59,104 nt of DNA from a virus (lineage: Duplodnaviria > Caudoviricetes): positions 1 to 59,104 of IMG/VR virus record IMGVR_UViG_3300050016_000060. The stretch is one strand, 5' to 3'. The notes beneath the pieces are model-generated. The model ran no database searches, was not told where the DNA came from, and saw only the letters and a list, made by a program, of their open reading frames with translations. The position numbers and the translations under genes are program-made. Of this stretch, positions 3,887 through 58,246 are shown piece after piece. Positions within the stretch are counted from its first letter, which is position 1; each line of letters starts with the position of its first letter.

Positions 3887-4155
3887 ATAGCCCCAGGATG
3901 GGCAAAGCCGCAAAACGTCGAAGGAAGCGGCAAGGGCCGTCAGCCGTGGTCTAGGCCCAAAGATTCGACCTCACTGCTTTTGATTCGCCCCGGTGCATCG
4001 GGTAAGGCTCAATACGGCCCGATCATCGACAGGACGTGACGGAGGAATCGTGGCAACGTCCCTAAAAAACCAGACCATGACAATCGGAACCGACTCACCC
4101 GCGAGGAATTTCCTGCATTGGCTCCCGCTGCGGCGGGGTCAATGCGCCCCGATCT
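3887..4155 (+). ncRNA. Candidate structured non-coding RNA, copy 1 (homologous to 44818-45110, - strand)
   Basis: Identical 44-nt and 26-nt blocks plus several 11-13 nt blocks shared with copy 2; compensatory changes in stems. Confidence 0.65.
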
Positions 4156-4676: not shown

Positions 4677-5022
4677 GGCAATAACATACTTGGGCAATCA
4701 CATACTTGACGCATCAGGAGAAAAAATGGCAAAAGCAAAACTTGGTGGCGCGGAAGTGACCTGCGATAAATTCGTGAAAGCACTCATTGATCGGCTGCTC
4801 GGTAACGAAAAACGCATCGAGCTGCTGACCACGGAAATAAACGACTTGCGCGACCAAATGGCGGAACAAGCTGCGTGGCTCGTTGCCGGCAAAGGTTTGA
4901 GGTTCAGCAATGTTCTTGACGCTGACAGCGATCTCCCAAATTCACACACGGTATTCGTCCCTATCGAGCTATGCAAGTTTGGTGGGGAAACCGAATCCTG
5001 ATGCGTCAAGTATGTGATTGCC
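4677..5022. mobile_element. Non-autonomous IS1595-like mini-cassette carrying one gene
   Basis: Perfect 30-bp inverted repeat 4690-4719 / 4996-5025; extra partial TIR at 4677-4692; flanks CAATCGAA / CAATGAAG (degenerate target duplication). Confidence 0.8.
4726..5001 (+). CDS. Hypothetical cassette cargo protein (91 aa)
   Basis: AGGAG RBS overlaps left inverted repeat; TGA stop lies in right TIR. Confidence 0.7.
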   Translation: MAKAKLGGAEVTCDKFVKALIDRLLGNEKRIELLTTEINDLRDQMAEQAAWLVAGKGLRFSNVLDADSDLPNSHTVFVPIELCKFGGETES

Positions 5023-5161
5023 CAATGAAGGCATCCTGCGCAGCGGCAGATCGGATCGCCAAGGAGCTATCCAAGACTCTTATAAAAGACGTTTGGGATC
5101 GACTGCCGATTGCAATAGCGTTACGGCAAGCGGCCATGAACAAGCCACGAAAGGCGAAGAA

Positions 5162-6936: not shown

Positions 6937-7182
6937 ATGATCGTGAGATTCCTGTTCGTATTGCTGGCGGCGCTCTTGTTTCACTTCGTCAACACCAACG
7001 ATGTCGAGGCGAAGTGCCGCAAGGGCCGCGCCGTCCTGTTCCCGCGCCTGCACCAGTGGATTGCGGAGCATCACCAGCGCGCCGCCGACCATCACGCTTC
7101 GCTAGGTGCGTGTGCCGCGCCAGCCGAGCCAATCCCCGCGCCGGTTGCGCCGCCGACGAAAGCAGATCCGAAGAAGAAGTAA
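6937..7182 (+). CDS. Small exported protein with signal peptide and Pro-rich tail
   Basis: AAGGAG RBS; MIVRFLFVLLAALLFHF...VEA. Confidence 0.65.
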   Translation: MIVRFLFVLLAALLFHFVNTNDVEAKCRKGRAVLFPRLHQWIAEHHQRAADHHASLGACAAPAEPIPAPVAPPTKADPKKK

Positions 7183-7267
7183 ACTACTTCCTACCGAGTA
7201 GACGCTCCGGGACCGGCTCTCTTGTTGAGAGGATACCGGGGCTGTCCTTCACTTCACCAAGGGCGAT

Positions 7268-7522
7268 ATGATGCGCCCGCCGAATTGCCCCGATTTCGCA
7301 TGGGTACGTGCTAGTGAATGCGCTGTCGCTAACGGCATCGGGGACACGTCGCTTTGGAAATGGTCACGTCAAGAACGCACGAAGGTTTTGCTCGCATCTC
7401 TGGACAGTTTACCGCGCGATCAAGCGATGTATGAGGAAGTGACGGCGCTCGTTTACCAGCGCGCCTATGAAGCGGCCCTGGACGTGGCGATACCGTTGTG
7501 GCGGAAACGACGGGAACGGTGA
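7268..7522 (+). CDS. Hypothetical protein
   Basis: 84 aa ORF with AAGGGG RBS. Confidence 0.55.
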   Translation: MMRPPNCPDFAWVRASECAVANGIGDTSLWKWSRQERTKVLLASLDSLPRDQAMYEEVTALVYQRAYEAALDVAIPLWRKRRER

Positions 7523-7644
7523 AATGCTCAATTCCTTAGTTGCTCTCCAAGGTCGCCAGCCGCGCCTTGCCGTTGTCGGATGCTCTTTGGTTCGCGGTCC
7601 CATCGCTTGCCCTCCCGTCCATGCCCGTATTCTGCCGAAATAGG

Positions 7645-7674
7645 TTGCATTTGTCTATCGGAATACCGTAAACT
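7645..7674 (+). promoter_or_regulatory. Promoter for probably leaderless tail-fibre transcript
   Basis: TTGCAT-18-TAAACT, 6 nt before ATG 7681; no SD. Confidence 0.45.
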
Positions 7675-7680
7675 ATCCGC

Positions 7681-9219
7681 ATGAAAAGCGATAACCTGCA
7701 ACCGCCGTTCCTGGGGCCGCAGTTCCCGATCTACCCGCATTTGATGCAGTTGATCCGCGTCACGGACGCTACGCCGATTCCTACGTCTAGCTCGTCGTCA
7801 TCGTCTAGCATCCAAGGCAATTACGTCTTTGCGGCAAAAACGCAGCAACAGCTTGACGTAACGGTTGCCGTGCGGGATAGGGAAGATTGCTATTTGTACG
7901 ATCCGAACGGGACTGATCTGATCGAACATATTTACACGGCCCGTCTGGTTGGCTCTTACGCTGGCTTGCCGCTGTATGCGACAACGGACGCTGTGACTTC
8001 ATCCGTTATCTACGTCTACCCCGGCATAGGCAATCCGCCGCCAGCGTATAACAGCGGTAAAACGTATGGCCAAGGCGACATCGTAAGCGACGGTGCAACC
8101 CCTAATCATGCCTTTGGCTGTTTGGTCGATGGCACGGTGGGCATTTCTCCGGTTGCCGGCCCGAATTGGGCCGATCTAGGCACGGACGTTTATTTCTTCG
8201 CCGCCAATTTGACATCCTTGGTTAATGGCGGATGGGCCGTTGGCGCTGCTATCCAAGCAAGAGAGATGAACGGACTGGCGACGGTTCCGCCTGGCTACTA
8301 TATCGCCGTCTACGAAGAGATCGAGAATGGGATTGCGACATGGGCATTCAGCGGTTTTAGACTGTTGAGATTGCTGAATACGGTTTACAACGCTAATCCT
8401 ACTGGCGGTCCAACGCTACCGACTATCGTGGAGTTCACAGGCTCAGCCCCGGCATGGAGCGCCGGCACATATCAGATGGGTGAGCATGTCAAGTGGACGG
8501 ACGGAAACGAGTACATTTCAAACTCGAATGCGAACGCAGTCGATCCAAGCAATAGCACATGGGACAGTCTCGGCAGCGTTTTGAATTTCGGCCCGCAATG
8601 GATTGTGATTCCGCAGATTGACAACGCTGGATTGCCGGCAGGACCGGCCTCGCCGAAAGTTTCTATCGGAACGATGAACAATCAGGCGCAGTTCTTTGTC
8701 GGCTTAAAAACATTCGACGCCAATATCAACATTGGTGCTGCCTACACCGGAACGTACACGGAAATCTTGGATCAGAGCGTGACAGTGTTTGAGGCAGACG
8801 GAAGCTATGCTTTTATAGGGTACGAAGGCGGGATAAGCGCCCTTGCATTATTAGTGAATACTTTTGGAGTAAGTCACACGGAGGTTACTGATGGATACAT
8901 AACTGCCTATGATGCTGATGCCGCTTCGGGAGGATTCACGACTGGCCTTCAATTCGACACGACAACAGGAACGGTAGTAGCATTCGCCAGCAATTACACC
9001 CATCCTTGTTATGCCGTTTTCGGGGCATTTGGCGTCGGATTGCAACAAGGTTTGTGGGAAACGTATGCCGGATGTTATTTTGCCGGTGGTCTTTACGTTG
9101 GCCATGCCATTCCGCCAATCGTGGCCGATGGAACTTATACGGTTGGGTTGGGCGTGACGACAGACGGTACGATCACGATAACCAACGGCGCTATTACATT
9201 TATTCAACAGGCATCGTGA
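7681..9219 (+). CDS. Tail fibre / receptor-binding-like protein with CBM5/12-like modules
   Basis: 512 aa Gly/Thr/aromatic-rich; AYNSGKTYGQGDIV and AWSAGTYQMGEHVKW carbohydrate-binding-type motifs; C-terminal TITITNGAIT. Confidence 0.65.
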   Translation: MKSDNLQPPFLGPQFPIYPHLMQLIRVTDATPIPTSSSSSSSSIQGNYVFAAKTQQQLDVTVAVRDREDCYLYDPNGTDLIEHIYTARLVGSYAGLPLYATTDAVTSSVIYVYPGIGNPPPAYNSGKTYGQGDIVSDGATPNHAFGCLVDGTVGISPVAGPNWADLGTDVYFFAANLTSLVNGGWAVGAAIQAREMNGLATVPPGYYIAVYEEIENGIATWAFSGFRLLRLLNTVYNANPTGGPTLPTIVEFTGSAPAWSAGTYQMGEHVKWTDGNEYISNSNANAVDPSNSTWDSLGSVLNFGPQWIVIPQIDNAGLPAGPASPKVSIGTMNNQAQFFVGLKTFDANINIGAAYTGTYTEILDQSVTVFEADGSYAFIGYEGGISALALLVNTFGVSHTEVTDGYITAYDADAASGGFTTGLQFDTTTGTVVAFASNYTHPCYAVFGAFGVGLQQGLWETYAGCYFAGGLYVGHAIPPIVADGTYTVGLGVTTDGTITITNGAITFIQQAS

Positions 9220-44817: not shown

Positions 44818-45110
44818 AGATCGGGGCGCATTGACCCCGCCGCGAATTTTATCGCAGCGTAAGTCAATGCGTTTCCGTGTCGTAAAGGTGAGTCGGTAAC
44901 GCTTGCCGAAGTCTGGTTTTTTATGGATGTTGCTTCAGTTCCTCCGTCACATCCTATCGGTGAATGGGCCGTCTTTAGCCTCGCCTCATTGCACCGGCTC
45001 GCCTACGAGCGTTGCAGCAAACAGTATAGATCGAATCTTTGGGCCTAGACCACGGCTGACGGCCCTTGCCGCTTTTTCGATGATTGCGGCTGCGTCCATC
45101 CTGGGACTAT
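44818..45110 (-). ncRNA. Candidate structured non-coding RNA, copy 2
   Basis: Homologous to 3887-4155; intergenic, upstream of protease/scaffold gene. Confidence 0.65.
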
Positions 45111-47293: not shown

Positions 47294-48784
47294 TTACCAT
47301 GCGGACTTGCCGCTTGTGAACAACAATGGGTCTTCCCGTGATTCCCTTATCGGCTGGCGTAGTCCTTGCACAACGCGGGCCGTGATTGATCGGCAGTCAA
47401 CCATATCATCATCTTCCCCAGGCGTTCCGGTCCACGACGAAAGTTGTTCTTTGAATGCCGAAAGCCACGGAGCATTTTGCGGTAGATGGACGCGATGGTT
47501 TTCTCCATCGATGATCGCTGCCGAGGCCCGCACCTTTTTATCTCGATTGCCAATTGGCATACACCGAACTTCGGGAATCTCAGGATGACGCCGATATTCC
47601 AAGAGCATCGCTTGCGAAAGATTGTCGTCATCACCAGCCACGATGTTCGGGTTCCACTGGCGGCACACATCGGCTAATCTCCCCCCAATATGCTCTAGCC
47701 GGATGCGGTCGTTAATGCTCTCAAATATAAGCGTTCGACCGTCCCGCGTCAAACCCGAATTTGCAGGAAGCAATCCCGATACCTCGATTGCCGTGTGATC
47801 GCTCGTTTTTTTCTTGCCCAGCGAAACGTCAATCGAGACGACAATCGTCACGTCCTTTGCATAATAAACTCGCCGTGTAGCCCCTTCCATCACCCACCAT
47901 GAATTAGGCACGCTATACGTCGATCCATAGATGGGCCAGTCCTGCGGCTTAAATAGCAGCCCTTCTTCGTCAGGCGGTTCCTGTTGCCAGCACGCCTTGA
48001 ACCATCGCCCGCGTTTTTGTTGAATCAACTGCAATCGCTTGAGCGGCACACGTTCAGGCCAAAGAGCATCACCTGCCTTGCGCCCGAGAATATCGTTTTC
48101 GCCAGCAATCGCTTTGAACTTCACGACACGCCATTTCTCGCCCGTGTCCATCGCCTCCCGATAAATCCGCCCCGGCAAGTCATCTTTCACCCATCGCGTT
48201 GTTACCATGATGATCGGAGCAACAGGACCGAGCCGCGAATAGGCCACGGTCGAATACCAGTCCCAATGGTTATCGAGGATCGTTTTCGATTGCGCCTGTT
48301 CCGCGTCCTTGATAACATCATCCAGAATGAGCATATCGGCAGGCCGTCCTGTCAAGCCGCCTTTCAATCCCTTGCAGACCAATCCGCCCCCGTGCCCCTC
48401 GATGTTCCATTCGTTCTTTGATTTCGTGTCTTTACGCAATTCGATCCCGTGTGGCCCACCGAATCTCCTAATAACTTCGCGGACCTTCGAGCCGAACGTA
48501 CCGGAATAATGTTCTTCATAAGACGCCAGCACGATCCGCATGAACGGGAAAAGCAAGAGAATCCAGGCAGGGAAGTAATGCGAGCAAAGAACACTCTTGC
48601 CGTGCTGAAATGGCATGTGAACGCCGAGCCGATCATTCAGACCGAGGCCGATGTCCACTAGCTCTTTGTTGACGACCGCGAGATGAGGGGCCATTCGCCA
48701 TTTGCCGTTTGTGTCGGCAAACGCTAATGTTGCTGGACTTGCAAGGTGCGGGCAGCGTTCAAGAAGTTCAGGAAGCTGCATCAT
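47294..48784 (-). CDS. terL: Terminase large subunit
   Basis: MPFQHGKS Walker A, LTGRPADMLILDD Walker B, TRW..DDL.G, SID, DDDMVD nuclease motifs. Confidence 0.95.
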   Translation of the reverse strand: MMQLPELLERCPHLASPATLAFADTNGKWRMAPHLAVVNKELVDIGLGLNDRLGVHMPFQHGKSVLCSHYFPAWILLLFPFMRIVLASYEEHYSGTFGSKVREVIRRFGGPHGIELRKDTKSKNEWNIEGHGGGLVCKGLKGGLTGRPADMLILDDVIKDAEQAQSKTILDNHWDWYSTVAYSRLGPVAPIIMVTTRWVKDDLPGRIYREAMDTGEKWRVVKFKAIAGENDILGRKAGDALWPERVPLKRLQLIQQKRGRWFKACWQQEPPDEEGLLFKPQDWPIYGSTYSVPNSWWVMEGATRRVYYAKDVTIVVSIDVSLGKKKTSDHTAIEVSGLLPANSGLTRDGRTLIFESINDRIRLEHIGGRLADVCRQWNPNIVAGDDDNLSQAMLLEYRRHPEIPEVRCMPIGNRDKKVRASAAIIDGENHRVHLPQNAPWLSAFKEQLSSWTGTPGEDDDMVDCRSITARVVQGLRQPIRESREDPLLFTSGKSAW

Positions 48785-49181
48785 GGGGTTTGCCGTTGGT
48801 GTCCTCGATTGCCTTGACCGGCGAACAAACTTGATCGGAGAAGGCAACCAACATCTTACGGACCTCTGGCGATTTCATGGCTTCCCGCAGCCCTGCCGTA
48901 GCTTCCATAACGTCCGTTTGCCGCTCTTGGACGCGAACCGCTTCACGCTTCACGTTGATCGAATCAGCCGTCAAAAGGACTTTCGCCGCTAAAAGTTGCC
49001 AGCGTTCGCTATCGGAGAACATGAGAATTGTATGGGCCTGGCCGATGATATTCTGCCGTATTTCCGGCGTCATCTGGTATTCGTTGCGAATTGCGGTGTT
49101 GGCCAGTTTCAAATCGGAACGTGTAACTTCCCCCTGACCCCCCATGAATTTGCCGTTTGAGTGGCCGTTGGTTTCGCTCAT
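48768..49181 (-). CDS. terS: Putative terminase small subunit
   Basis: 137 aa helical protein overlapping terL start; positional. Confidence 0.5.
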   Translation of the reverse strand: MSETNGHSNGKFMGGQGEVTRSDLKLANTAIRNEYQMTPEIRQNIIGQAHTILMFSDSERWQLLAAKVLLTADSINVKREAVRVQERQTDVMEATAGLREAMKSPEVRKMLVAFSDQVCSPVKAIEDTNGKPHDAAS

Positions 49182-49423
49182 CTGAATTGCCCCATCCTAC
49201 TCGCCTCATGCCCCATCCCGATCATCACCAACGCCAAGAGGCCAATCAGCAATATGGCTATCGTCGAAACAGCCCCCACGCCAATCACCCGCAACCATTG
49301 CGGCAGCACCTTGCCAAACTCGCCGAGGCCCATGACCATCGGGGCTTGCATCAAGCGAGCTATGGCGTAGATCGCAATAATGAAGCCGATAACCTGCATC
49401 ATCTGAAATTGGACGGGGAACAT
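49178..49423 (-). CDS. Small two-TM membrane protein
   Basis: Two hydrophobic segments; first gene of the late operon. Confidence 0.6.
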   Translation of the reverse strand: MFPVQFQMMQVIGFIIAIYAIARLMQAPMVMGLGEFGKVLPQWLRVIGVGAVSTIAILLIGLLALVMIGMGHEASRMGQFR

Positions 49424-49429
49424 GGTTCA

Positions 49430-49458
49430 ATCCTAGTCTGAGGTTTTCGCCGTGTCAA
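49430..49458 (-). promoter_or_regulatory. Promoter heading the morphogenesis operon (leaderless first gene)
   Basis: TTGACA-17-TAGGAT, 6 nt before ATG 49423. Confidence 0.65.
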
Positions 49459-49588
49459 GACCCTTCCACGATGCTGGCAATATGTGAGCCCTGGGAGCCG
49501 GGCTCTGGGTTGTGTTGCTGTGGTACGGATGGGTCGTGCTGGATTGCTGGCTCGTGATGCGCTGGCTGCTGGCGTGAAACCTACAAGC

Positions 49589-49741
49589 CTAGAACTCTCT
49601 TCGCCTCCTGCAGTCGTTTGAACGGCCCCTCGCCGCGGATTTTTTGCGTTTTGCTTTTTTCTTCCGGTATCGTTTTTCCGCGCGGTCAAGTTCACGCTTG
49701 CCAACCGCCAGGAGAGCGCGGAGTAATTCGTCAAAGGTCAT
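49589..49741 (-). CDS. Small basic protein coupled to IS1595-like gene
   Basis: MTFDELLRALLAVGKRELDRAEKR..., homologous to 56378-56518. Confidence 0.65.
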   Translation of the reverse strand: MTFDELLRALLAVGKRELDRAEKRYRKKKAKRKKSAARGRSNDCRRRREF

Positions 49742-50622
49742 TGCCGTTGCCCCCGACAGATGCGGTGGATATATCGGATTGGCACACAAAAACGTTCGGC
49801 CAATTCAGCTCGCGACACGGATTCCTTGACCCGATGAATCTCAGCAATCTGTGCATCGGTCAAGAGTGCAAGGTGTTGTCGCTGCCCTCTCGCAGTGGTT
49901 CCGTGCCGGCGCTTGTCAGCCGCATTTTCCAAAGGCGTGCCCCATGCGAGATTATCCAACCGATTGTTCTCGCGGTTGCCGTCGAGATGCCTTGCCTCTT
50001 TGCCGTCTGGTCGTGGCCCAATGAACGCGGCGAGAACGATTCCAGCAACATTGACGTTGCGGCTTGCGGACTCGCTTCGCAGCGAAACACACCGATAGCC
50101 GTGACCGTTCAGCGTTGGATGCAGAAATTTCCACGGGCCATGAAATTTCGACCAAACCGATCCATTACTCCCAACGCGGTATGCCGGGAATCCGGCAATT
50201 GGACGATATTCTACGTGCGGTTCGGCGAGCAAAAATTCTTGAGTCTCCATCGCGACTTTGAGCCGGTGCAAAAGATACCACGCGGACGGCTGGCGGATGC
50301 CGAGCGCCCGCGCGAGTTCGCAACTGCTGATCCCGTTCTTGGCGTTGGCTCTACACCAGACGGCCACGAACCACTTATCCAAGCCGAGCGGCGAATCTTC
50401 AAAGATCGTCCCGACCTTCGCGGAGAATTGCTTGCGGCACCCAGCCGCTTTGCATTGGAGCATACACCGACTGGCGATGTTGCCGATCTTGTCCCCGCCG
50501 CATTTCGGACAGGTGATTTTCCCGTCCGGCCATTTCAGGCGGATCATGTAGGCGTGACACTCGCCGAGATCGGCGAAGTGCGTCACGGCTTCGATCAGGG
50601 TTTTTGGTCCGTTCTCGTTCAT
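49738..50622 (-). CDS. Fusion: IS1595 transposase Zn-ribbon + HTH joined to NUMOD4-HNH endonuclease
   Basis: KWPDG..CPKCG...CRKQFSAKVGTIFEDS.L.L.KWF...KNGISS..LAR.LG....AW..LHR then YRPIAGFPAYRV...G.VWS, HLDGNRENNRLDNLAWGT..EN. Confidence 0.85.
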   Translation of the reverse strand: MNENGPKTLIEAVTHFADLGECHAYMIRLKWPDGKITCPKCGGDKIGNIASRCMLQCKAAGCRKQFSAKVGTIFEDSPLGLDKWFVAVWCRANAKNGISSCELARALGIRQPSAWYLLHRLKVAMETQEFLLAEPHVEYRPIAGFPAYRVGSNGSVWSKFHGPWKFLHPTLNGHGYRCVSLRSESASRNVNVAGIVLAAFIGPRPDGKEARHLDGNRENNRLDNLAWGTPLENAADKRRHGTTARGQRQHLALLTDAQIAEIHRVKESVSRAELAERFCVPIRYIHRICRGQRQ

Positions 50623-50625
50623 GGA

Positions 50626-50853
50626 TCATTTCCCTTCCGGCGATTTGCTGGCGTGCTCGGTCATGGCTTCTTGGATTTCCGCCAGGCGAGATTTTGGAAG
50701 AACGAACACAAGGCCATGATCCGTGCGGCGCGCCTGTGGGAGATGCTCATCGGGTAGCCTCTCAAAAGGACGCCCCCGCCAAGGCCGAACGCCGAAGCGT
50801 TCCAAGGGTCCGCACTCCTGAGCGGTTTCCTTGGCGGGGACTCGGAGTATCAC
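50626..50853 (-). CDS. Hypothetical protein
   Basis: GTGA overlap with upstream gene. Confidence 0.45.
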   Translation of the reverse strand: MILRVPAKETAQECGPLERFGVRPWRGRPFERLPDEHLPQARRTDHGLVFVLPKSRLAEIQEAMTEHASKSPEGK

Positions 50854-51242
50854 GCATCGACGCCAGACGATCCGAGGATCACCGAGAAACGCCAGTAAAT
50901 AGTGTACGCGCATTCTTTCGCGCTGGAAAATCCGGAATCCCCGCCGAACAGCGGGCCACCATTAAGGCCGAAAGAAATAACATCGCTTGGAGCGTGGTTG
51001 GCCCAATTGACGACGGCCTTGAGCCGAACCAAAAAATCGCTTGGCTGCCCACATCGGAGGGCGGCCAAAATTCTCCACCGATGCTGTGGGCAGATGCCAC
51101 CGGCATAGTATGCCGCGACCTCTGCAATTTTTCGCAGAAGAGGCGTCCATCGGTCGTCGAAATGGCCGAATTGAGTGTGGACGATTGGGTGCCGACGATA
51201 CATCGGATGCTCGTCGCCAGAGAGGACAGACACGATACACAT
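50850..51242 (-). CDS. Hypothetical protein
   Basis: AGGAG 7 nt before ATG 51242. Confidence 0.55.
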   Translation of the reverse strand: MCIVSVLSGDEHPMYRRHPIVHTQFGHFDDRWTPLLRKIAEVAAYYAGGICPQHRWRILAALRCGQPSDFLVRLKAVVNWANHAPSDVISFGLNGGPLFGGDSGFSSAKECAYTIYWRFSVILGSSGVDA

Positions 51243-51325
51243 AGCATTGCTCCTGAATTAGGGACGGGCTGCCGAACACTCGACAGGCTGGATTGAGGAC
51301 CGGGCTGACGAGGCCCGGCGAAAAA

Positions 51326-51565
51326 TCAAAACTCTTGAGCGGTCGCGAACATGGCCTCACCAGTCGCGTCATCGACCGTCGTAACAGGCCCGTAAGCCCG
51401 ATGGCTCCCGTTGCTCTGACAGATGCGTTTCTGCCAGCCTTTTTTCGTCCGCCGAATCTGATGATGGTGGACTCCGCCGGCGCTCGCCTGATCGTTGGCG
51501 ACATCGTGCGTGTAGCCAGTGGTGCGATAGGTGTTCCATGTCGTCTTGCTGATCGTGGTCTTCAT
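51326..51565 (-). CDS. Hypothetical early protein
   Basis: GGAG RBS; first gene after duplicated promoter. Confidence 0.65.
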   Translation of the reverse strand: MKTTISKTTWNTYRTTGYTHDVANDQASAGGVHHHQIRRTKKGWQKRICQSNGSHRAYGPVTTVDDATGEAMFATAQEF

Positions 51566-51610
51566 GATCTTTCTCCGATGCGTCCTGCCCCTGATCGCCG
51601 GGGCCGCGTC

Positions 51611-51683
51611 GTCGAGTTCCTCACCCGACACCTTAATTATACCGGATAGCGTCGATGAGTCAAGCGTATAGTCTAGTTATTTT
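51611..51683 (-). promoter_or_regulatory. 73-bp direct repeat copy 1 containing strong promoter
   Basis: TTGACT-16-TATAAT; identical to 52904-52976. Confidence 0.85.
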
Positions 51684-51731
51684 GAAAGATTTATCAAAAT
51701 ACTTTCCTGACGTTCCCGACAGGTTTTACTC

Positions 51732-51755
51732 TGATGAGCCAAATGGATAATCACC
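51732..51755 (-). repeat. IS1595-like TIR (no partner found)
   Basis: GGTGATTATCCATTTGGCTCATCA. Confidence 0.7.
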
Positions 51756-52014
51756 CAAGCAAGTGCAGGGCATCTTGCGGTGTGCGAGCGCAGTAGATTC
51801 TCTGAGCGAAAGCTGGACTGTCAGCGTATGCCGAGTAGACGTTGTGCCGCGTATTGCAATCGTCGCAGAGTGTCGGCACGGTCATATCAGGTTCAATCGG
51901 AGCCATCCCAGGCATCCCGAAGTCAAGGACTTTGGGGTTGTTCGACCAGAACAATCCATCGTCAGATTCGCGGCCACAATGGGCACACAGACCGCCAAGT
52001 TTTGCCGAGCGCAT
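51751..52014 (-). CDS. Small Zn-binding hypothetical protein
   Basis: CAHCG...LCDDC; GGAGG RBS; stop codon inside the TIR. Confidence 0.6.
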   Translation of the reverse strand: MRSAKLGGLCAHCGRESDDGLFWSNNPKVLDFGMPGMAPIEPDMTVPTLCDDCNTRHNVYSAYADSPAFAQRIYCARTPQDALHLLG

Positions 52015-52164
52015 TTATGCCTCCTATTCGAGCGGTTTGAGACAGGGGAGTTTCGCCACGCGCCGCCAATGACACTTCCGCTCAAGAGCCTTGTGCGGCT
52101 TGCCCTTTTTGCAGTCCCACACGCTGATAGTCCATTGCTGTCCTTCGCCCGGCTCACCGGTGAA

Positions 52165-52863
52165 TCAATGGGTGTGGCTCCGGCTGATTTTCGTGGTGCC
52201 GTCGGGTTGGGCGGTTTCACTCAGAATGTCGATGTCACATTCCTCGACCGAACCGTCACACGTCGCACTCCAGCGCCGAATCTCGACAGGCCGGCCGGTC
52301 AACTTGGCCTGCTCAAACGCGGCTCGGCGCTTCGCCTGACGTTCGGCGTTTTTCGCGTCCAGCTTGGCTTTCTCTTCGTCCAAGCCGGGTTTGGCGAAGG
52401 CGACAGCGGCGGGATAGGTGAAACTCTCGCCTAAGGCGTCGATCACTTCGTTTTTGACGTGCGTTCCCCAGCCGCGAACGTCTTTCGCCAGGCCGAGCTT
52501 TTCCAGGAGTTCGGCCGCGTACCCAGAGACCGCATAGCCGGTCAGGTATTCCCCGTCGTGATAGTGATAGGTGACCTTGATTGGATCGGTGCCGTTTTCG
52601 ATTCGCTCGTGAGAGGCTTTTTCTTCGGCCGCTTTTGCGTCGGCCGCTTTTTTCTGCTCAGCCACAATTTCTCGGACCTTGGCCGCGAGTTCCGGTTTAT
52701 CCGCGATTCGGACCTTCAGCGTCCGCTTCGCCCCGCCGACGGTCTGGGTGCCGAAATCCACCATCGTCTCGCCGTCCTGCTGGACGATGCGACCGCCGGT
52801 GAACGTCCCGCCGCCGAGTATGCCGGCCGGTGCGGTCCAAGTGATGCTTTTTTCGTTCGACAT
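52165..52863 (-). CDS. Hypothetical early protein
   Basis: 232 aa; AAGGG RBS; first gene after promoter copy 2. Confidence 0.7.
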   Translation of the reverse strand: MSNEKSITWTAPAGILGGGTFTGGRIVQQDGETMVDFGTQTVGGAKRTLKVRIADKPELAAKVREIVAEQKKAADAKAAEEKASHERIENGTDPIKVTYHYHDGEYLTGYAVSGYAAELLEKLGLAKDVRGWGTHVKNEVIDALGESFTYPAAVAFAKPGLDEEKAKLDAKNAERQAKRRAAFEQAKLTGRPVEIRRWSATCDGSVEECDIDILSETAQPDGTTKISRSHTH

Positions 52864-52903
52864 GGTTTTTCCCTTTCGTGCCCCGGGTCGGCCAGGGTTG
52901 CCG

Positions 52904-52976
52904 GTCGAGTTCCTCACCCGACACCTTAATTATACCGGATAGCGTCGATGAGTCAAGCGTATAGTCTAGTTATTTT
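52904..52976 (-). promoter_or_regulatory. 73-bp direct repeat copy 2 containing strong promoter
   Basis: Identical to 51611-51683. Confidence 0.85.
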
Positions 52977-53025
52977 CGGATTTTCCCGAAAATAGTTTTC
53001 TTGCCGTCCCGAAAGGCTCGGGGCG

Positions 53026-53049
53026 TGGTGCGTCAAGTGGATAATCACC
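53026..53049 (-). repeat. IS1595-like TIR abutting target sequence CAAATGAA
   Basis: GGTGATTATCCACTTGACGCACCA. Confidence 0.75.
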
Positions 53050-53070
53050 CAAATGAAGGCAATAATATAG

Positions 53071-53099
53071 TTGACTCACCACGCTCCGCTGCCTATAAC
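53071..53099 (+). promoter_or_regulatory. Promoter whose -35 lies inside the left TIR
   Basis: TTGACT-17-TATAAC, 6 nt before ATG 53106. Confidence 0.65.
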
Positions 53100-53105
53100 G
53101 AGAGT

Positions 53106-53882
53106 ATGAGCATGACAGAAAAACGCATCGAACTTTGGTCTTGTGGCGGCGGTCGGCAGTCAGCCGGTATCGCGGCCTTCATCAAGGAAGGCTTGCTCCC
53201 CAGGCCGGATCATGTCGTCATGGTCGCCTTGGAATGGGAAGTGCGGACGGTCTGGGCCTACGTCAACGCCTACATCCGCCCCGCAATGGAATCGCTGGGT
53301 ATCCCGTTCACAGCCATTCCACGAAAGAAGTACGCGACGAAAGACTTCTGGGGCGGCGCAGACGGCGATTCCACGCTCTTGCCGGTCTACACGAACCAAT
53401 CGGGCGAGAACTCCAAGCTGCCAGAGTTTTGCAGCGGGGAGTGGAAGCGAGAAGTCGTCAAGCGCTGGGCCGCTGAACAACCTGGGTGGAAAGATCGCGG
53501 GGTAAATTGCTGGACTGGCATCAGCAAGGATGAGGCGGGCCGTCGCGGTGTCGCGCGGGCCTTGTGGTACGGGCCGACGTATCCCCTGCTCGATGTCCTC
53601 TGCACTCGCGTTGCCGGTTGCCTGATGGCTGTAGAGCGTCAAGGATGGCCAGCCCCGCCACGTTCGCGGTGTCGGCATTGTCCGAACCAGCAAGACGCGG
53701 AGTGGGCCGAACTGACTCCCGAAGAGTGGGAGCTTGCCTGCCAGACCGATGAAATGGTCCGCGAAGTCGATCCCCACGCTTTCCTGCATAAGAGCATGAT
53801 GCCGCTGCGAATGGTTACGTTGAATCCAGACGACGACAACGGCGGCTTGTACGGTGGATGCCAGAGCGGAACTTGTTGCTAA
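53106..53882 (+). CDS. PAPS reductase-like / PP-loop adenine nucleotide alpha-hydrolase family protein
   Basis: SCGGGRQS, CSGEWK, GISKDE, YPLL, PPRSRCRHCP, terminal GCQSGTC. Confidence 0.8.
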   Translation: MSMTEKRIELWSCGGGRQSAGIAAFIKEGLLPRPDHVVMVALEWEVRTVWAYVNAYIRPAMESLGIPFTAIPRKKYATKDFWGGADGDSTLLPVYTNQSGENSKLPEFCSGEWKREVVKRWAAEQPGWKDRGVNCWTGISKDEAGRRGVARALWYGPTYPLLDVLCTRVAGCLMAVERQGWPAPPRSRCRHCPNQQDAEWAELTPEEWELACQTDEMVREVDPHAFLHKSMMPLRMVTLNPDDDNGGLYGGCQSGTCC

Positions 53883-53891
53883 AGGTGAACC

Positions 53892-54431
53892 GTGATTGAT
53901 GAGAAGAAATCGACGGAAGCAGTTGCACTTGAACACGGCATGAATTGCCCACATAGGACGCCGAACAGCGACGACGATTGCACCTGCGGATTGCGTTGGC
54001 GGATCGCTCTCCAAACAGAACAGACGATGCACGCCGCATGGAGGAAGAGAGCCGAGGAAGCAGAAGCCGCGATTGCCGTTAGCTCTCAAGATGCCGTAGC
54101 CAAAGAATGCGAACGAATCAGCATCACAATCTACATGGCCGGGGACATCGCCCAGGCCAAGCAGATCATCCGTGGTTTTTGTTGGGCTCGCGGCTGGTGC
54201 GTAACGGTGACGCCAACGGCGTACATCTACTCCGGTGGTGAAGAAAGCGGCTTCATTGTTGGAATCGAAAACTATCCGCGATTCCCTTCCACGCTGGATG
54301 AATTGACCGGGAAGGCAAAGGAACTTGCCGAACGATTGGCCGTGCTTCTCTTTCAGAAAAGTTACATGATCTGCACACCAAAAACGACATTCTGGCAAAC
54401 CGACAAAATGCCTTTTGAAAAGGACAGTTGA
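53892..54431 (+). CDS. Conserved phage hypothetical protein
   Basis: IYMAGD...CVTVTPTAYIYSGGEESGFIVGIENYPRFP. Confidence 0.7.
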   Translation: MIDEKKSTEAVALEHGMNCPHRTPNSDDDCTCGLRWRIALQTEQTMHAAWRKRAEEAEAAIAVSSQDAVAKECERISITIYMAGDIAQAKQIIRGFCWARGWCVTVTPTAYIYSGGEESGFIVGIENYPRFPSTLDELTGKAKELAERLAVLLFQKSYMICTPKTTFWQTDKMPFEKDS

Positions 54432-54579
54432 ATGAACGCAGACGGACCCCAAACCCTGATCGAAGCTGTGAAGCACTACGCTGATCTCACGGTCTGCCAT
54501 AACTACATGGTCAAGCTGAAATGGTCTGATGGCCGGATCGTCTGCCCGAAGTGTGGTAGCGACAAGATCGGCTCGGCAA

Positions 54580-54807
54580 TCACATACTTGACGCATCAAG
54601 GCCCGTCTGGGCTTTCACTAGCGCGAACTTCGCGCCGTACTTGATCTCGGCATCTTTAGTGGCCCGTCGTCTTGCTTCTCTCCCGTCGTTCCATCCGGCC
54701 ATGAAATCTTCGTCGTTCTGCATTCCCGCCGGCGTTGGCTGAACCGCCGCTGAACAAAACCACCCACGCATGTAAATCATCATCAGGTTGTACTGGTCTG
54801 CGCTCAT
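54580..54807 (-). CDS. Hypothetical cargo protein
   Basis: GAGGAG RBS; stop codon inside TIR. Confidence 0.6.
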   Translation of the reverse strand: MSADQYNLMMIYMRGWFCSAAVQPTPAGMQNDEDFMAGWNDGREARRRATKDAEIKYGAKFALVKAQTGLDASSM

Positions 54808-54816
54808 GTCAACTCC

Positions 54817-55026
54817 TCAAAAGTAGTCGTCATCCAGAGGTTCGTATTCCTTCATGACTGAGCCAGTTCCTTGGCATCGAGAGCATTCACGCACGCGAAG
54901 AAGATCGTCAACGATTGATTGCAACTCGCCGCTTCCCTGGCAATCTGGACACTCGTCACCTTCCTCGTGGTTTCCATCCCCGTTGTTCCAGTCGTAAGGT
55001 TCAATCGGGCAACCGTGATAGTCCAT
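54817..55026 (-). CDS. DnaJ-type zinc-finger small protein
   Basis: CPDCQGSG...CSRCQGTG. Confidence 0.65.
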   Translation of the reverse strand: MDYHGCPIEPYDWNNGDGNHEEGDECPDCQGSGELQSIVDDLLRVRECSRCQGTGSVMKEYEPLDDDYF

Positions 55027-55031
55027 GTCGG

Positions 55032-55655
55032 TTACACCTTCTTTCCTGTCAGCCGTTCAAATATCTCAATCGTCTTCCATCCTTGCTCTGTCATCAGGTC
55101 CGCAAGAATGCAGTTGTCGGTCTTCAAAGTGGAATGCTTGATCTGACGTGCGTATGCCGTCAATCCAGCAATGAACCCGTGATGAAACGCCGTCGCCTCT
55201 TCAACCGTTTGCGGGCCTGTGAACGGTTCGCTAGAACACGTTACCAATACTTCCGGGAGGAACTCATCTGGTCGGCATTCCTTGCAAAAATACTCCGATC
55301 CGGCTTTGTGGTCGCACTTGATGTCGAGCGGCGGAAACTCGTTGCGGTCGTCTTTCGGATTCCTATCGTCCTTGATTTCTTCGAGTTGAAAAATAGATGC
55401 CGCCAACTTTTCAAATTGGTTCCCTTTCATCGGGCAGTCCGCTTCATTGCACCTAACGAAGTGGTGACACGCAAGGAATGTCGTGTTGCACTTCAGGCAA
55501 ACCTCGTCAACCAATCCATCACGGTAGGCTTGCACTTGCATCTCGACCAACTTGGCGTCCGGGAACCGTTGACGATGCAGCGACTCCGCAGCTTCCCTTT
55601 CGTGGCCAGTCGAATTACGTTTTCTTGCTTCACTCATAGATTTTCTCCTATTCAA
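55032..55655 (-). CDS. Cys-rich hypothetical cargo protein
   Basis: 207 aa ORF; start may be ATG 55637 (AGGAG RBS). Confidence 0.6.
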   Translation of the reverse strand: MNRRKSMSEARKRNSTGHEREAAESLHRQRFPDAKLVEMQVQAYRDGLVDEVCLKCNTTFLACHHFVRCNEADCPMKGNQFEKLAASIFQLEEIKDDRNPKDDRNEFPPLDIKCDHKAGSEYFCKECRPDEFLPEVLVTCSSEPFTGPQTVEEATAFHHGFIAGLTAYARQIKHSTLKTDNCILADLMTEQGWKTIEIFERLTGKKV

Positions 55656-55876
55656 TCACCAGGGCAGTTTTCCGGGAATCCACATACCGTGTCGTGACAA
55701 TCGCAACCGTCGTGCGGATCAGCGCCGCATATTTCGCAGTCGTCGCTGTCCATTTCGCTGGCATCGCCTACAATTCCATCCCAGCAATCAAAGCAAAGAT
55801 CGGTTTGCTGTCCTTGCCATTCGCCAGACCATTGAACATCGAATTGCGTCCCGCAGATTGTGCAAGTTCTGTCCAT
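55652..55876 (-). CDS. Small Cys-rich cargo protein
   Basis: CTICG...CFDC...CEICG. Confidence 0.6.
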   Translation of the reverse strand: MDRTCTICGTQFDVQWSGEWQGQQTDLCFDCWDGIVGDASEMDSDDCEICGADPHDGCDCHDTVCGFPENCPGD

Positions 55877-56064
55877 TACTTCTTAACCTCGTCGATCCAA
55901 GATCGAATCCAGTAATTGAAATGCTTGTGCGCCAACGTGAACGCCTCTTGCTCTTCCTTCGTCAACGTCGATGAACTTCCGCCCAGCATCCCGTACCTCG
56001 GATCGCGGTCGATGTTCGCCAGCAGTTTTTCAAAATCGGCTTCCGCCAGGATGTAGGCTTTCAC
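55876..56064 (-). CDS. Hypothetical cargo protein
   Basis: GGGAGG RBS adjoining the TIR. Confidence 0.65.
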   Translation of the reverse strand: MKAYILAEADFEKLLANIDRDPRYGMLGGSSSTLTKEEQEAFTLAHKHFNYWIRSWIDEVKK

Positions 56065-56377
56065 GGACCAACCTCCCTTGATGCGTCAAGTATGTGATTA
56101 CCATCGGCTCGATTGCCACGCGATGTATGTTGCGCTGCAACGCGAAGGGATGCCGGAAACAGTTTAGCGTCAAGGTCGGCACGATCTTTGAGGATTCCCC
56201 CCTGGGTCTCGACAAGTGGTTCATCGCGATCTGGTGCGTCATCAATGCCAAGAACGGCGTCAGCAGCTACGAGATTCATCGGGCGCTTGGCGTTACGCAA
56301 AAGACGGCCTGGTTCATGGACCATCGAATCCGCTTGGCACTCAAGACCGGCACGGCGGGTTTTATGGGGATCGAGTG

Positions 56378-56518
56378 ATGGCAAAATCCAAGGAAGCAAC
56401 GGCGTTCGATAAGGCGATGGCCGCACTTGTCCAAGTTCCGAAATCGGAACTTGACAAGGCGCTGCGCGAAGAGGCGCGGGCGAAGAAACGCCGCAAGCAA
56501 CGCAAGCACAAGCGATGA
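56378..56518 (+). CDS. Small basic protein coupled to IS1595-like gene
   Basis: MAKSKEATAFDKAMAALVQVPKSELDKALREEARAKKRRK. Confidence 0.65.
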   Translation: MAKSKEATAFDKAMAALVQVPKSELDKALREEARAKKRRKQRKHKR

Positions 56519-56622
56519 TGAATTTAGCCAGCATTTTCGCCCTCGCATGAATCAGTAATCCGTGGTGAGCCAAGTATGTCATTACCCAAATGAAACTTGG
56601 CTGCTTGTGTTTGCGAGGGCAA

Positions 56623-58191
56623 TCATATACTTGACTCATCAGCCGAAAAACCGCTGCCACAGAACGCAAAAAGCAACCGCGCCACAAGCCGGGACGACTG
56701 CATTTCCCAGCGCGCGAAGCTCATCGGTTCGACTGTTTGGAGCGTTGCCCATCCCATCGGCAACCCCTGTAGCCACTCCACGAATCGCGGATTGAGTCGC
56801 GGGCGCGAGGTCGGGCCTGACGGCAAGGATGCGCTCCCATTCGGCTCTGGCGGCGGGGCCTGGGGGCCAGTAAGGGATTCCTGAAATATCCGCACTTGGT
56901 CCGTGATCGTTGTCGTGATCGGCTCGCCGTCCTTGTTTCTCGGCATCTCCCCAGGTGCCCATGTCGCTTCTTTCGTTCCCGCTGACATTTGATTTCTTGG
57001 CGTGGCCCATTGGCTCATCGTCTGCTCCACCGACTTCGCAAACTCCCCGCCCAGCCCCTGCTTGCCCGTCGCATCCACTCCCGCCATCCCTGCTGGCGTC
57101 GGCCACAACTCCGAAGAGGCAGTCGGGACAGGTTCCTCGATGTTCATCGCTGATACGCCGGAAAACAAGTCCGCTTCCTTTGCAGGTCGTGCAAATTCTT
57201 CGATCGCTCCCCGCAGGCTGTCCTGCTTCCCCGGATGGTTGCCGCAACTCTCCGAGTCCTCCGCTCGTGGGGTCGGCCACGTTCCCGTTTGGCGATTCAG
57301 ATTGGCCCCCTGCGTCGATGTCTCGTCCACTCCCGGCCGTCTGCCGTCGTGCGATGTCGGGCTGTTCCACAGCGATTCCGTTTCCAGATTCTCCATGAGG
57401 ATATTTGCTGCTGCTGCTGCTGCTGCTGGCGAATGGCGTGCCCGTTCCGAGGGACAATCCAGATTCGCGTTTTTTGTCGGAGTCGGCCAGCACTTCGTCG
57501 CGCCCGTCAGACTGTCCATCGCGTCGGGGTGGTTGCCGCAACTTTCGGAGTCCTCGGCTCTGGGGGATGGCCAGTTGCTCGCCTCTTCGCACAACGCCCG
57601 AAAGCCCAGGGCCTTCGCTTCGTCGCTGCATACCGGCTCTTTGTGCTCCGAACTTCGCGGCGTAGGCCAAGAGGAAGAACCGTTCCCGCCGCTGGGGCGC
57701 TCCAACGTCTTCCGCCGCCACACTGATCCACTCCGCATCGTACCCGTCTTCGGCCAGCTCTCCGAGTATCCGAACGATGGGAGCTGTAAGCTGCTTTCCG
57801 CGCTCTGGAATAGCGATCCCTGGCACGTTCTCCAGGAAGAGGAATGGCGCTCCCACGTCGCGAAGGGTTCGCCGCAAGGCGGGCCAGAGATTTCTTGGAT
57901 CGCGTTCGAGTTCACGCTTTCCGGCGATGCTGTTTCCCTGGCAAGGGATTCCCGCAACGACGCAATCCACGAGACCGCGAAAGCCTTTGCCTTTGAAGGT
58001 GGTAAGGTCCGTCCAAATAGGCGCCGGATCAAGCCGCCCTTCTTCCATGCGCGTTGCCAGAACTTCGGCGGCATAGATTTCCCTCTCCAAGTGAACGAGC
58101 GTGCGAACGCCTGGCATTGCGAGTCGGACGGACAATCCGAGTCCGCCGATGCCGCTGCAAACTTCGATAGTTGTGAAGGAATTATCCACAC
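56623..58191 (-). CDS. Overlapping-frame partner of the methyltransferase (WPTP repeats + motif IX-like end)
   Basis: 522 codons open, same strand; repeated W-P/N/A-T/S-P; RLNPRFVEWLQGLPMGW. Confidence 0.7.
   Translation of the reverse strand: MWIIPSQLSKFAAASADSDCPSDSQCQAFARSFTWRGKSMPPKFWQRAWKKGGLIRRLFGRTLPPSKAKAFAVSWIASLRESLARETASPESVNSNAIQEISGPPCGEPFATWERHSSSWRTCQGSLFQSAESSLQLPSFGYSESWPKTGTMRSGSVWRRKTLERPSGGNGSSSWPTPRSSEHKEPVCSDEAKALGFRALCEEASNWPSPRAEDSESCGNHPDAMDSLTGATKCWPTPTKNANLDCPSERARHSPAAAAAAANILMENLETESLWNSPTSHDGRRPGVDETSTQGANLNRQTGTWPTPRAEDSESCGNHPGKQDSLRGAIEEFARPAKEADLFSGVSAMNIEEPVPTASSELWPTPAGMAGVDATGKQGLGGEFAKSVEQTMSQWATPRNQMSAGTKEATWAPGEMPRNKDGEPITTTITDQVRIFQESLTGPQAPPPEPNGSASLPSGPTSRPRLNPRFVEWLQGLPMGWATLQTVEPMSFARWEMQSSRLVARLLFAFCGSGFSADESSI
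56639..58189 (-). CDS. dcm: DNA cytosine-C5 methyltransferase (alpha-type chain)
   Basis: Motif I CSGIGG, IV GIPCQ, VI LENVPG, VIII QRRERFF, X LRALGNAVVP; motif IX not in this frame. Confidence 0.9.
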   Translation of the reverse strand: MDNSFTTIEVCSGIGGLGLSVRLAMPGVRTLVHLEREIYAAEVLATRMEEGRLDPAPIWTDLTTFKGKGFRGLVDCVVAGIPCQGNSIAGKRELERDPRNLWPALRRTLRDVGAPFLFLENVPGIAIPERGKQLTAPIVRILGELAEDGYDAEWISVAAEDVGAPQRRERFFLLAYAAKFGAQRAGMQRRSEGPGLSGVVRRGEQLAIPQSRGLRKLRQPPRRDGQSDGRDEVLADSDKKRESGLSLGTGTPFASSSSSSSKYPHGESGNGIAVEQPDIARRQTAGSGRDIDAGGQSESPNGNVADPTSGGLGELRQPSGEAGQPAGSDRRICTTCKGSGLVFRRISDEHRGTCPDCLFGVVADASRDGGSGCDGQAGAGRGVCEVGGADDEPMGHAKKSNVSGNERSDMGTWGDAEKQGRRADHDNDHGPSADISGIPYWPPGPAARAEWERILAVRPDLAPATQSAIRGVATGVADGMGNAPNSRTDELRALGNAVVPACGAVAFCVLWQRFFG

Positions 58192-58246
58192 GATTCAGCC
58201 TCTTGATGAGCCAAGTATGTAATTGCCCTTCATTTCCATGCTTCGC

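Follow-up and report, generated by a model that had tools for sequence, protein, structure and literature searches.

Insertion sequences of the IS1595 family encode transposases composed of an N-terminal Zn-ribbon and helix-turn-helix (HTH) region and a DDE catalytic domain; they end in terminal inverted repeats (TIRs), leave 8-bp target duplications and, in many cases, have a small partner ORF downstream of the transposase gene. I-HmuI of Bacillus phage SPO1 (PDB 1U3E) is an intron-encoded HNH endonuclease acting as a nickase, in which functions have been assigned to residues H75, N87 and N96. Free-standing phage endonucleases of the I-TevI type join a nuclease core to separable DNA-binding modules and are selfish, phage-borne elements, recognised as presence/absence alleles with sharp boundaries. 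The HK97 gp74 type, finally, is a small HNH protein (PF01844) whose gene lies next to terminase and which is required for end cutting.

The window analysed here is an entire IMG/VR virus record, linear, 59,104 bp long and about 80% complete, from a phage whose host, judging from its closest relatives, probably belongs to the Planctomycetota. On the minus strand it contains an intact ORF of 294 aa (49738..50622) which, on the basis of domain, profile and fold matches, is the Zn-ribbon and HTH region of an IS1595 transposase (residues 1 to about 128) joined to a complete, I-HmuI-like NUMOD4-HNH-HTH endonuclease. The Zn-ribbon (residues 21–65; 50428..50562, minus strand) is recognised by Pfam Zn_ribbon_IS1595 (PF12760) above the cut-off (E 1.1e-7). 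The adjoining three-helix HTH region (residues 78–128; 50239..50391, minus strand) is supported by the structure model, by DNA similarity and by the NCBIfam model transpos_IS1595 (NF033547), which aligns residues 78–128 to its positions 3–54 of 215 with 40.7 bits, the cut-off being 75. Since this match is confined to the beginning of the model, the DDE part is missing from the protein; indeed, Pfam did not find the DDE catalytic domain (PF12762) in any of its 294 residues. DNA similarity to DDE-type IS1595 genes is likewise limited to 50229–50624, i.e., codons 1 to about 131, and its end at 50229 places the breakpoint of the window gene near codon 130. The approximately 125 N-terminal residues attributed to IS1595 in the earlier note were confirmed.

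In the C-terminal half, a predicted HNH (H-N-N) catalytic motif of the beta-beta-alpha fold (residues 196–240; 49903..50037, minus strand) is covered by Pfam HNH_3 at residues 196–234, above the cut-off (E 1.9e-11), and PHROGs assigned residues 138–293 to HNH endonucleases (phrog_59, E 9.4e-33). The predicted NUMOD4-like beta-sheet DNA-binding part preceding it (residues 140–182; 50077..50205, minus strand; NUMOD4, E 0.019) and the C-terminal HTH (residues 256–293; 49744..49857, minus strand; HTH_3 at residues 264–293, E 0.0029) were both sub-threshold in Pfam, and align to the N-terminus and to the C-terminal HTH region of I-HmuI, respectively. These weak calls are backed by two matches that span the whole module. 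A profile built from nine fusion C-termini matches I-HmuI residues 2–159 (E 2.5e-16), and I-HmuI (1u3e_M) was the sole significant PDB match of an AlphaFold2 model of the fusion protein (Foldseek E 1.7e-6, over 172 columns of the 174-residue chain). The in-frame succession of NUMOD4, HNH and terminal HTH that had been read from the sequence therefore holds. The model, obtained from a 15-sequence alignment with a mean pLDDT of 82.4, shows two beta-hairpins (46–57) and a three-helix bundle (81–126) in the N-terminal half, followed by a beta-sheet module (139–191), the HNH region and three terminal helices (256–289). For the N-terminal 128 residues, a sequence search for a solved relative found none.

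The likeness to I-HmuI therefore extends, in both sequence profile and fold, over residues 129–294 of the fusion. Both proteins have the N-terminal beta-sheet module and the C-terminal HTH, and H212, N224 and N233 of the fusion align to I-HmuI H75, N87 and N96, with identical spacings of 12 and 9 residues within the H-N-N motif; I-HmuI D74, on the other hand, is replaced by Arg211. By this comparison the module is probably a nickase. Unlike I-HmuI, which has no transposase-derived domain, the fusion carries 128 IS1595 residues ahead of the module. Zn-ribbon cysteines 38, 41, 57 and 62 as well as H212 are invariant both in 11 and in 30 fusion proteins; N224 and N233 show no variation in the smaller set and reach at least 90% conservation in the larger one. 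In divergent pairs drawn from five fusion genes, dN/dS was 0.14–0.46 in the Zn, HTH and HNH segments, these being rough estimates with many dS values above 1. With dN/dS below 0.5 and with Zn ligands and HNH residues conserved, the fusion is not decaying, a point on which the earlier note had made its reading depend. Taken together, the gene appears to encode an active-looking chimeric nuclease, placed where the DDE domain would stand within an IS1595-derived, TIR-bounded phage cassette.

The fusion gene is part of a tight minus-strand operon. Its stop overlaps the start of a small K/R-rich partner ORF of 50 aa (49589..49741) in an ATGA at 49738–41, so that the overlap previously described is real. 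Upstream, an ORF of 95 aa with no family match (50626..50913, minus strand) stops 3 nt before the fusion ATG, a spacing that suggests a coupled operon. About 1 kb upstream, at the head of the fusion cassette, a promoter-like site is present on the minus strand (51636..51663; TTGACT, 16 nt, TATAAT; 11/12). This near-consensus promoter is carried by a 113-nt direct repeat (51611–51723 and 52904–53016, 86% identical), which heads two adjacent cassettes just inside the TIR.

An array of IS1595-type TIR-bounded cassettes occupies positions 49400–58230 of the window, with a further unit at 4677–5025. The motif GGBAATNAYATAYTTGRC, found 12 times in the window against 1.23 occurrences expected, bounds four units, namely a MITE-like unit of 330 bp (4693–5022), cassette C (53058..56586, with CAAATGAA flanking both sides), cassette D (54575..56102), nested in C with near-perfect TIRs and an 8-bp target duplication (ATCGGCTC), and cassette E (56618–58227), which carries a C-5 cytosine methylase. 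Cassette A lies at 51756–53049 and cassette B, which holds the fusion, at about 49470–51755. Its proximal end is an inverted-repeat-like sequence with three mismatches to the motif (51738..51755, minus strand); a distal TIR was not recognisable, the best match within 49150–49700 having 9 mismatches in 24 positions. By the ISfinder grouping, we take these elements to belong to the ISNwi1-like group of IS1595 (GGnnatTAT ends, passenger genes).

The motif is a genuine inverted repeat of this IS1595 clade. We searched 79 genome loci with related transposases, mostly from Planctomycetota MAGs, for coding-strand matches with at most two mismatches. In 65 of the 79 DDE loci the motif preceded the gene by no more than 1100 bp, and in 56 of these by no more than 100 bp, with a modal distance of 48 bp, and a right-hand copy was also present in 23; the background outside 3 kb on either side of the genes was 8 matches in 617,521 positions. 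A K/R-rich partner ORF (..VPK.E.D..K/R-run) followed 9 of 63 intact DDE genes, plus three weaker cases, in a crude scan that can miss instances, and both partner ORFs of the window fit the same pattern, including the one next to the fusion. The second partner ORF (56378–56518) directly follows another IS1595 N-terminal gene devoid of DDE domain, whose 5' piece (54432..54581, plus strand) and 3' piece (56094..56378, plus strand, ending in the transposase tail ..GFMGIE) are separated by the 1.5-kb cassette D. N-terminus-plus-tail deletion alleles of this kind also occur at two metagenome loci (L192 and L194).

The window shares with IS1595 elements the inverted-repeat motif, the partner ORFs and, at cassettes neighbouring the fusion, the 8-bp target duplications. 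No DDE_Tnp_IS1595 domain (PF12762) was found anywhere in the 59,104-bp record, and, with no DDE in either the protein or the window, the fusion element cannot be an autonomous insertion sequence. Judging from their 8-bp target-site duplications, cassettes C and D moved by ordinary DDE transposition supplied in trans; such duplications count against the earlier proposal that the nuclease itself drives homing or recombination of the cassettes.

The architecture is not unique to this phage. A profile of the 11 fusions retrieved 48 protein clusters (249 sequences) with the full-length arrangement, scoring 267–479 bits, the next matches being confined to the N-terminus and scoring at most 235 bits. 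The domain-architecture search called for by the earlier note hence came out in its favour. Two further fusions, P0007 and P0009, were found by a single-sequence search, in which the best 120 matches comprised 9 other full-length relatives (43–54% identity) and 110 N-terminus-only proteins, mostly ordinary IS1595 transposases and some short N-terminal fragments. Over its N-terminal 43%, the window protein reaches 83% identity with ordinary transposases. Most of the 48 clusters belong to a second subfamily, with an N-terminus (MSKSTISTFELFQMFPD..) about 34% identical to that of the window. Among the best 150 matches of the C-terminal module alone, an IS1595 N-terminus was seen in P0007 only.

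Fusions were absent from 79 GTDB loci retrieved by N-terminal patterns and from 405 distinct Planctomycetota genomes, 8 of which hold a free HNH relative, in no case with an IS1595 N-terminus at the locus. Among GenBank phages, 739 records matched, none covering 80% or more of the window protein. In IMG/VR, no fusion was present among 10 loci inspected, and one of 80 loci holds a fusion (L093). Five matches of 539–2000 aa were examined for a longer protein combining Zn-ribbon, HNH and DDE and none was of this kind, which is weak evidence. No description of an IS1595-HNH fusion was found in those parts of the literature open to full-text search. Apparently, these fusions form a conserved, undescribed family.

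That the HNH module stands in place of the DDE domain, as first proposed from the window alone, is supported by the gene structure of relatives. The sharp breakpoints come from the second subfamily, whose members share about 36% identity with the window protein. Starting at the left TIR, the fusion locus L093 and the degenerate DDE-type locus L191 run together for 1166 bp with 99.7% identity; similarity stops at codon 77 and returns, at 96.8%, for the last 95 bp. When L093 is compared with an intact DDE copy (L189), flanks about 92% identical enclose unrelated cores of 648 and 642 bp. Similarly, the DDE locus L190 and the fusion locus L183 share 85–89% identity upstream of the gene, over its first 240 nt, and again from its last 30 nt through the partner ORF and the right TIR, and their cores, of 648 and 651 nt, are unrelated. 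The transposase tail ..KRLTYKALIA terminates many fusions of this subfamily, and downstream of the L185 fusion 48 codons from the 3' end of a DDE gene persist as a separate remnant. These comparisons show HNH and DDE cores to be alternative alleles on near-identical insertion-sequence backbones, with modules that recombine.

Each of the five fusion loci that include upstream flank (among them L183, L184, L185 and L093) has a perfect left inverted-repeat motif ahead of the gene, and at L183 the fusion and partner ORF lie between two TIRs (7065–9075); a target duplication was looked for by eye at the L183 element and none was seen. Since the L093 and L183 elements are 86% identical and lie at different places, the former after a GcrA-like gene and the latter after a terminase small-subunit gene, the element has moved as a unit. 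Shortly beyond the HTH, truncations or frameshifts interrupt four DDE-type alleles (L188, L191, L193 and L241) whose backbones are 94–99.7% identical to that of L093; these broken alleles could reflect ordinary decay or be scars of cutting.

Exchange of modules is also indicated within the family. Between L181 and L093 the HTH and HNH parts are identical (dS at most 0.03) and the Zn part is at dS 0.57; for L183 and L093, on the contrary, the Zn part is at dS 0.07 and the HNH part at 1.3. Such discordant dS values imply that modules were exchanged near codon 80. An N-terminal tree of 121 rows (11 fusions, every second of 92 intact transposases, 63 intact locus proteins and one window piece) scattered the 11 fusions, requiring 6 changes. 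However, a single fusion clade was not rejected by the AU test (p 0.53), the constrained tree being 2.63 lnL better. Repeated independent origin of the fusion is therefore not claimed from that tree, and recombination is shown by the DNA mosaics instead.

In a C-terminal tree, whose 75 rows comprised 30 fusions plus 45 free-standing proteins (160–230 aa), 25 of the 30 fusions grouped with one free-standing protein (SH-aLRT 84), and all 19 rows of the second subfamily formed one clade (89). The HNH cores of the two N-terminal subfamilies, themselves 34% identical to each other, clustered together, and the fusions needed 4 changes compared with 23.5 for shuffled labels. The tree is weakly supported, with no starred branch separating fusions from free-standing HNH proteins.

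The reading that we favour, with a confidence that falls somewhat short of even, is that the HNH core may be a homing-endonuclease cassette which spreads among IS1595 copies by recombination and leaves the element non-autonomous. The comparative data, with HNH and DDE cores on 92–99.7% identical backbones, sharp breakpoints and modules shuffled near codon 80, speak indirectly for such a homing-like or recombinational spread rather than for mobilisation of the cassettes. The transposase-derived domain, together with the I-HmuI-like contacts of the module itself, would bring the protein to IS1595 DNA, where it would nick or cut sibling IS1595 copies, and recombinational repair would then copy the HNH allele into the cut copies. 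Unable to transpose itself, the HNH element would rely on DDE transposases acting in trans on its TIRs. Like endonucleases of the I-TevI type, the fusion is phage-borne, modular and found as presence/absence alleles with sharp boundaries; it differs from them in having borrowed its additional module, an end-binding domain, from a transposase, and in invading the transposase gene of another mobile element. Plain homologous recombination between co-resident insertion-sequence variants, with no nuclease involved, could give the same mosaics. Moreover, most fusions have an HTH that has diverged from that of DDE-type transposases, so that TIR recognition may not be retained in every one of them.

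A stronger form of this reading, which we put forward more tentatively, makes the HNH core an outright parasite of the transposon. It would target the IS1595 DDE gene or the element ends and convert copies, would have jumped between at least two subgroups, and the converted elements, mobilised in trans, would accumulate in phages, often beside terminase genes. If so, cutting could account for the many near-identical backbones whose DDE allele is broken or internally deleted.

Of the other explanations, the one that survives best, although we consider it unlikely, is that the transposase-derived domain binds TIRs and the HNH domain cuts alongside, either mobilising cassettes or destroying competitors with the same ends. 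Such a role would suit the N-terminus of the window protein, which shares 81% identity with true DDE transposases and sits on a short branch in the tree; it would also suit a window with 10 or more TIR copies, no DDE domain, and a TIR motif that is the authentic repeat of the clade. Against this, the 8-bp duplications at cassettes C and D are what DDE transposition leaves behind, rather than copying driven by a nuclease, and strand transfer is impossible for an HNH nickase; in addition, the TIR copies of the phage itself would be hit as well, and the I-HmuI-like module brings its own full set of DNA contacts.

Somewhat less probable is an explanation in which an ordinary free-standing phage HNH homing endonuclease landed in frame in an IS1595 remnant, with a target unrelated to IS1595 and the N-terminus as a mere passenger. 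The C-terminal module family is indeed very large, with 80,644 representative clusters at E<=0.001, and is common in phages as free-standing genes of 160–210 aa. However, a passenger would hardly agree with the purifying selection on the N-terminal part and the invariant Zn ligands, nor with an architecture which recurs in 48 clusters, always in the transposase slot. One relative of the module, P0339 (901 aa), has the architecture of an NAD-dependent DNA ligase with a related HNH_3 domain, which suggests that such endonucleases may insert in frame in other genes too and would fit a passenger.

More doubtful still is a function domesticated by the phage, either as an HNH partner of terminase in genome-end cutting or in breakage of the host chromosome at IS1595 copies. 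Terminase genes are indeed near. In the window, a promoter-like site (49458–49430) downstream of the fusion gene precedes two small ORFs and then the large terminase gene (47294..48847; phrog_38, E 8.5e-67), and in L183 (6663–9075) and L184 (6868–8927) the fusion element is immediately preceded by a gene for the terminase small subunit (phrog_1482, E 6.8e-18, and phrog_51, E 2.9e-7, respectively). In these three phage contexts the nuclease gene is beside terminase genes, as for HK97 gp74, and the lack of fusions in the 405 Planctomycetota genomes, with all readable contexts lying among phage genes, also points to the phage. Unlike gp74, however, the fusion belongs to another HNH subfamily and differs in size at 294 aa; Pfam gave no PF01844 match in it and its fold is I-HmuI-like. 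Furthermore, the gene sits inside a TIR-bounded element, near-identical elements are found at different places (L093 and L183), and other copies are away from terminase genes, the fusions of L185, L187 and L093 lying amid recombination or replication genes. The adjacency to terminase in L183 and L184, and the position of the window gene upstream of packaging genes, could reflect a preferred insertion site or a functional link.

It is very improbable, lastly, that the protein is a regulator whose TIR-binding N-terminus represses or titrates transposition as truncated transposases do, the HNH part being dispensable. DDE-less N-terminus-plus-tail derivatives do recur (the second window gene, L192 and L194), but the I-HmuI-like module of the fusions is conserved throughout, catalytic HNH residues included, with dN/dS of 0.14–0.44.

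If the HNH core does behave as a homing-endonuclease cassette of IS1595 copies, this would exemplify clearly how one selfish element, a homing endonuclease, can colonise the catalytic gene of another, an insertion sequence; autonomous transposons would thereby be turned into phage-carried cassettes that bear a nuclease and are no longer autonomous. The core swap would also explain how a phage comes to hold IS1595-type cassettes without a transposase. As a predicted natural modular nuclease, composed of a transposase end-binding domain and an I-HmuI-type nickase, the fusion offers a direct way to test which DNA the N-termini of IS1595 transposases recognise.

Two other repeat features were observed in the window. 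Long-range inverted repeats about 41 kb apart (3925–4155 and 44818–45074) include complementary stretches of 47 nt (98%), 26 nt (100%) and 95 nt (79%), and a tandem 12-nt repeat with at least 11 copies occupies positions 1–170, at the start of the record, within an open frame running off the end.
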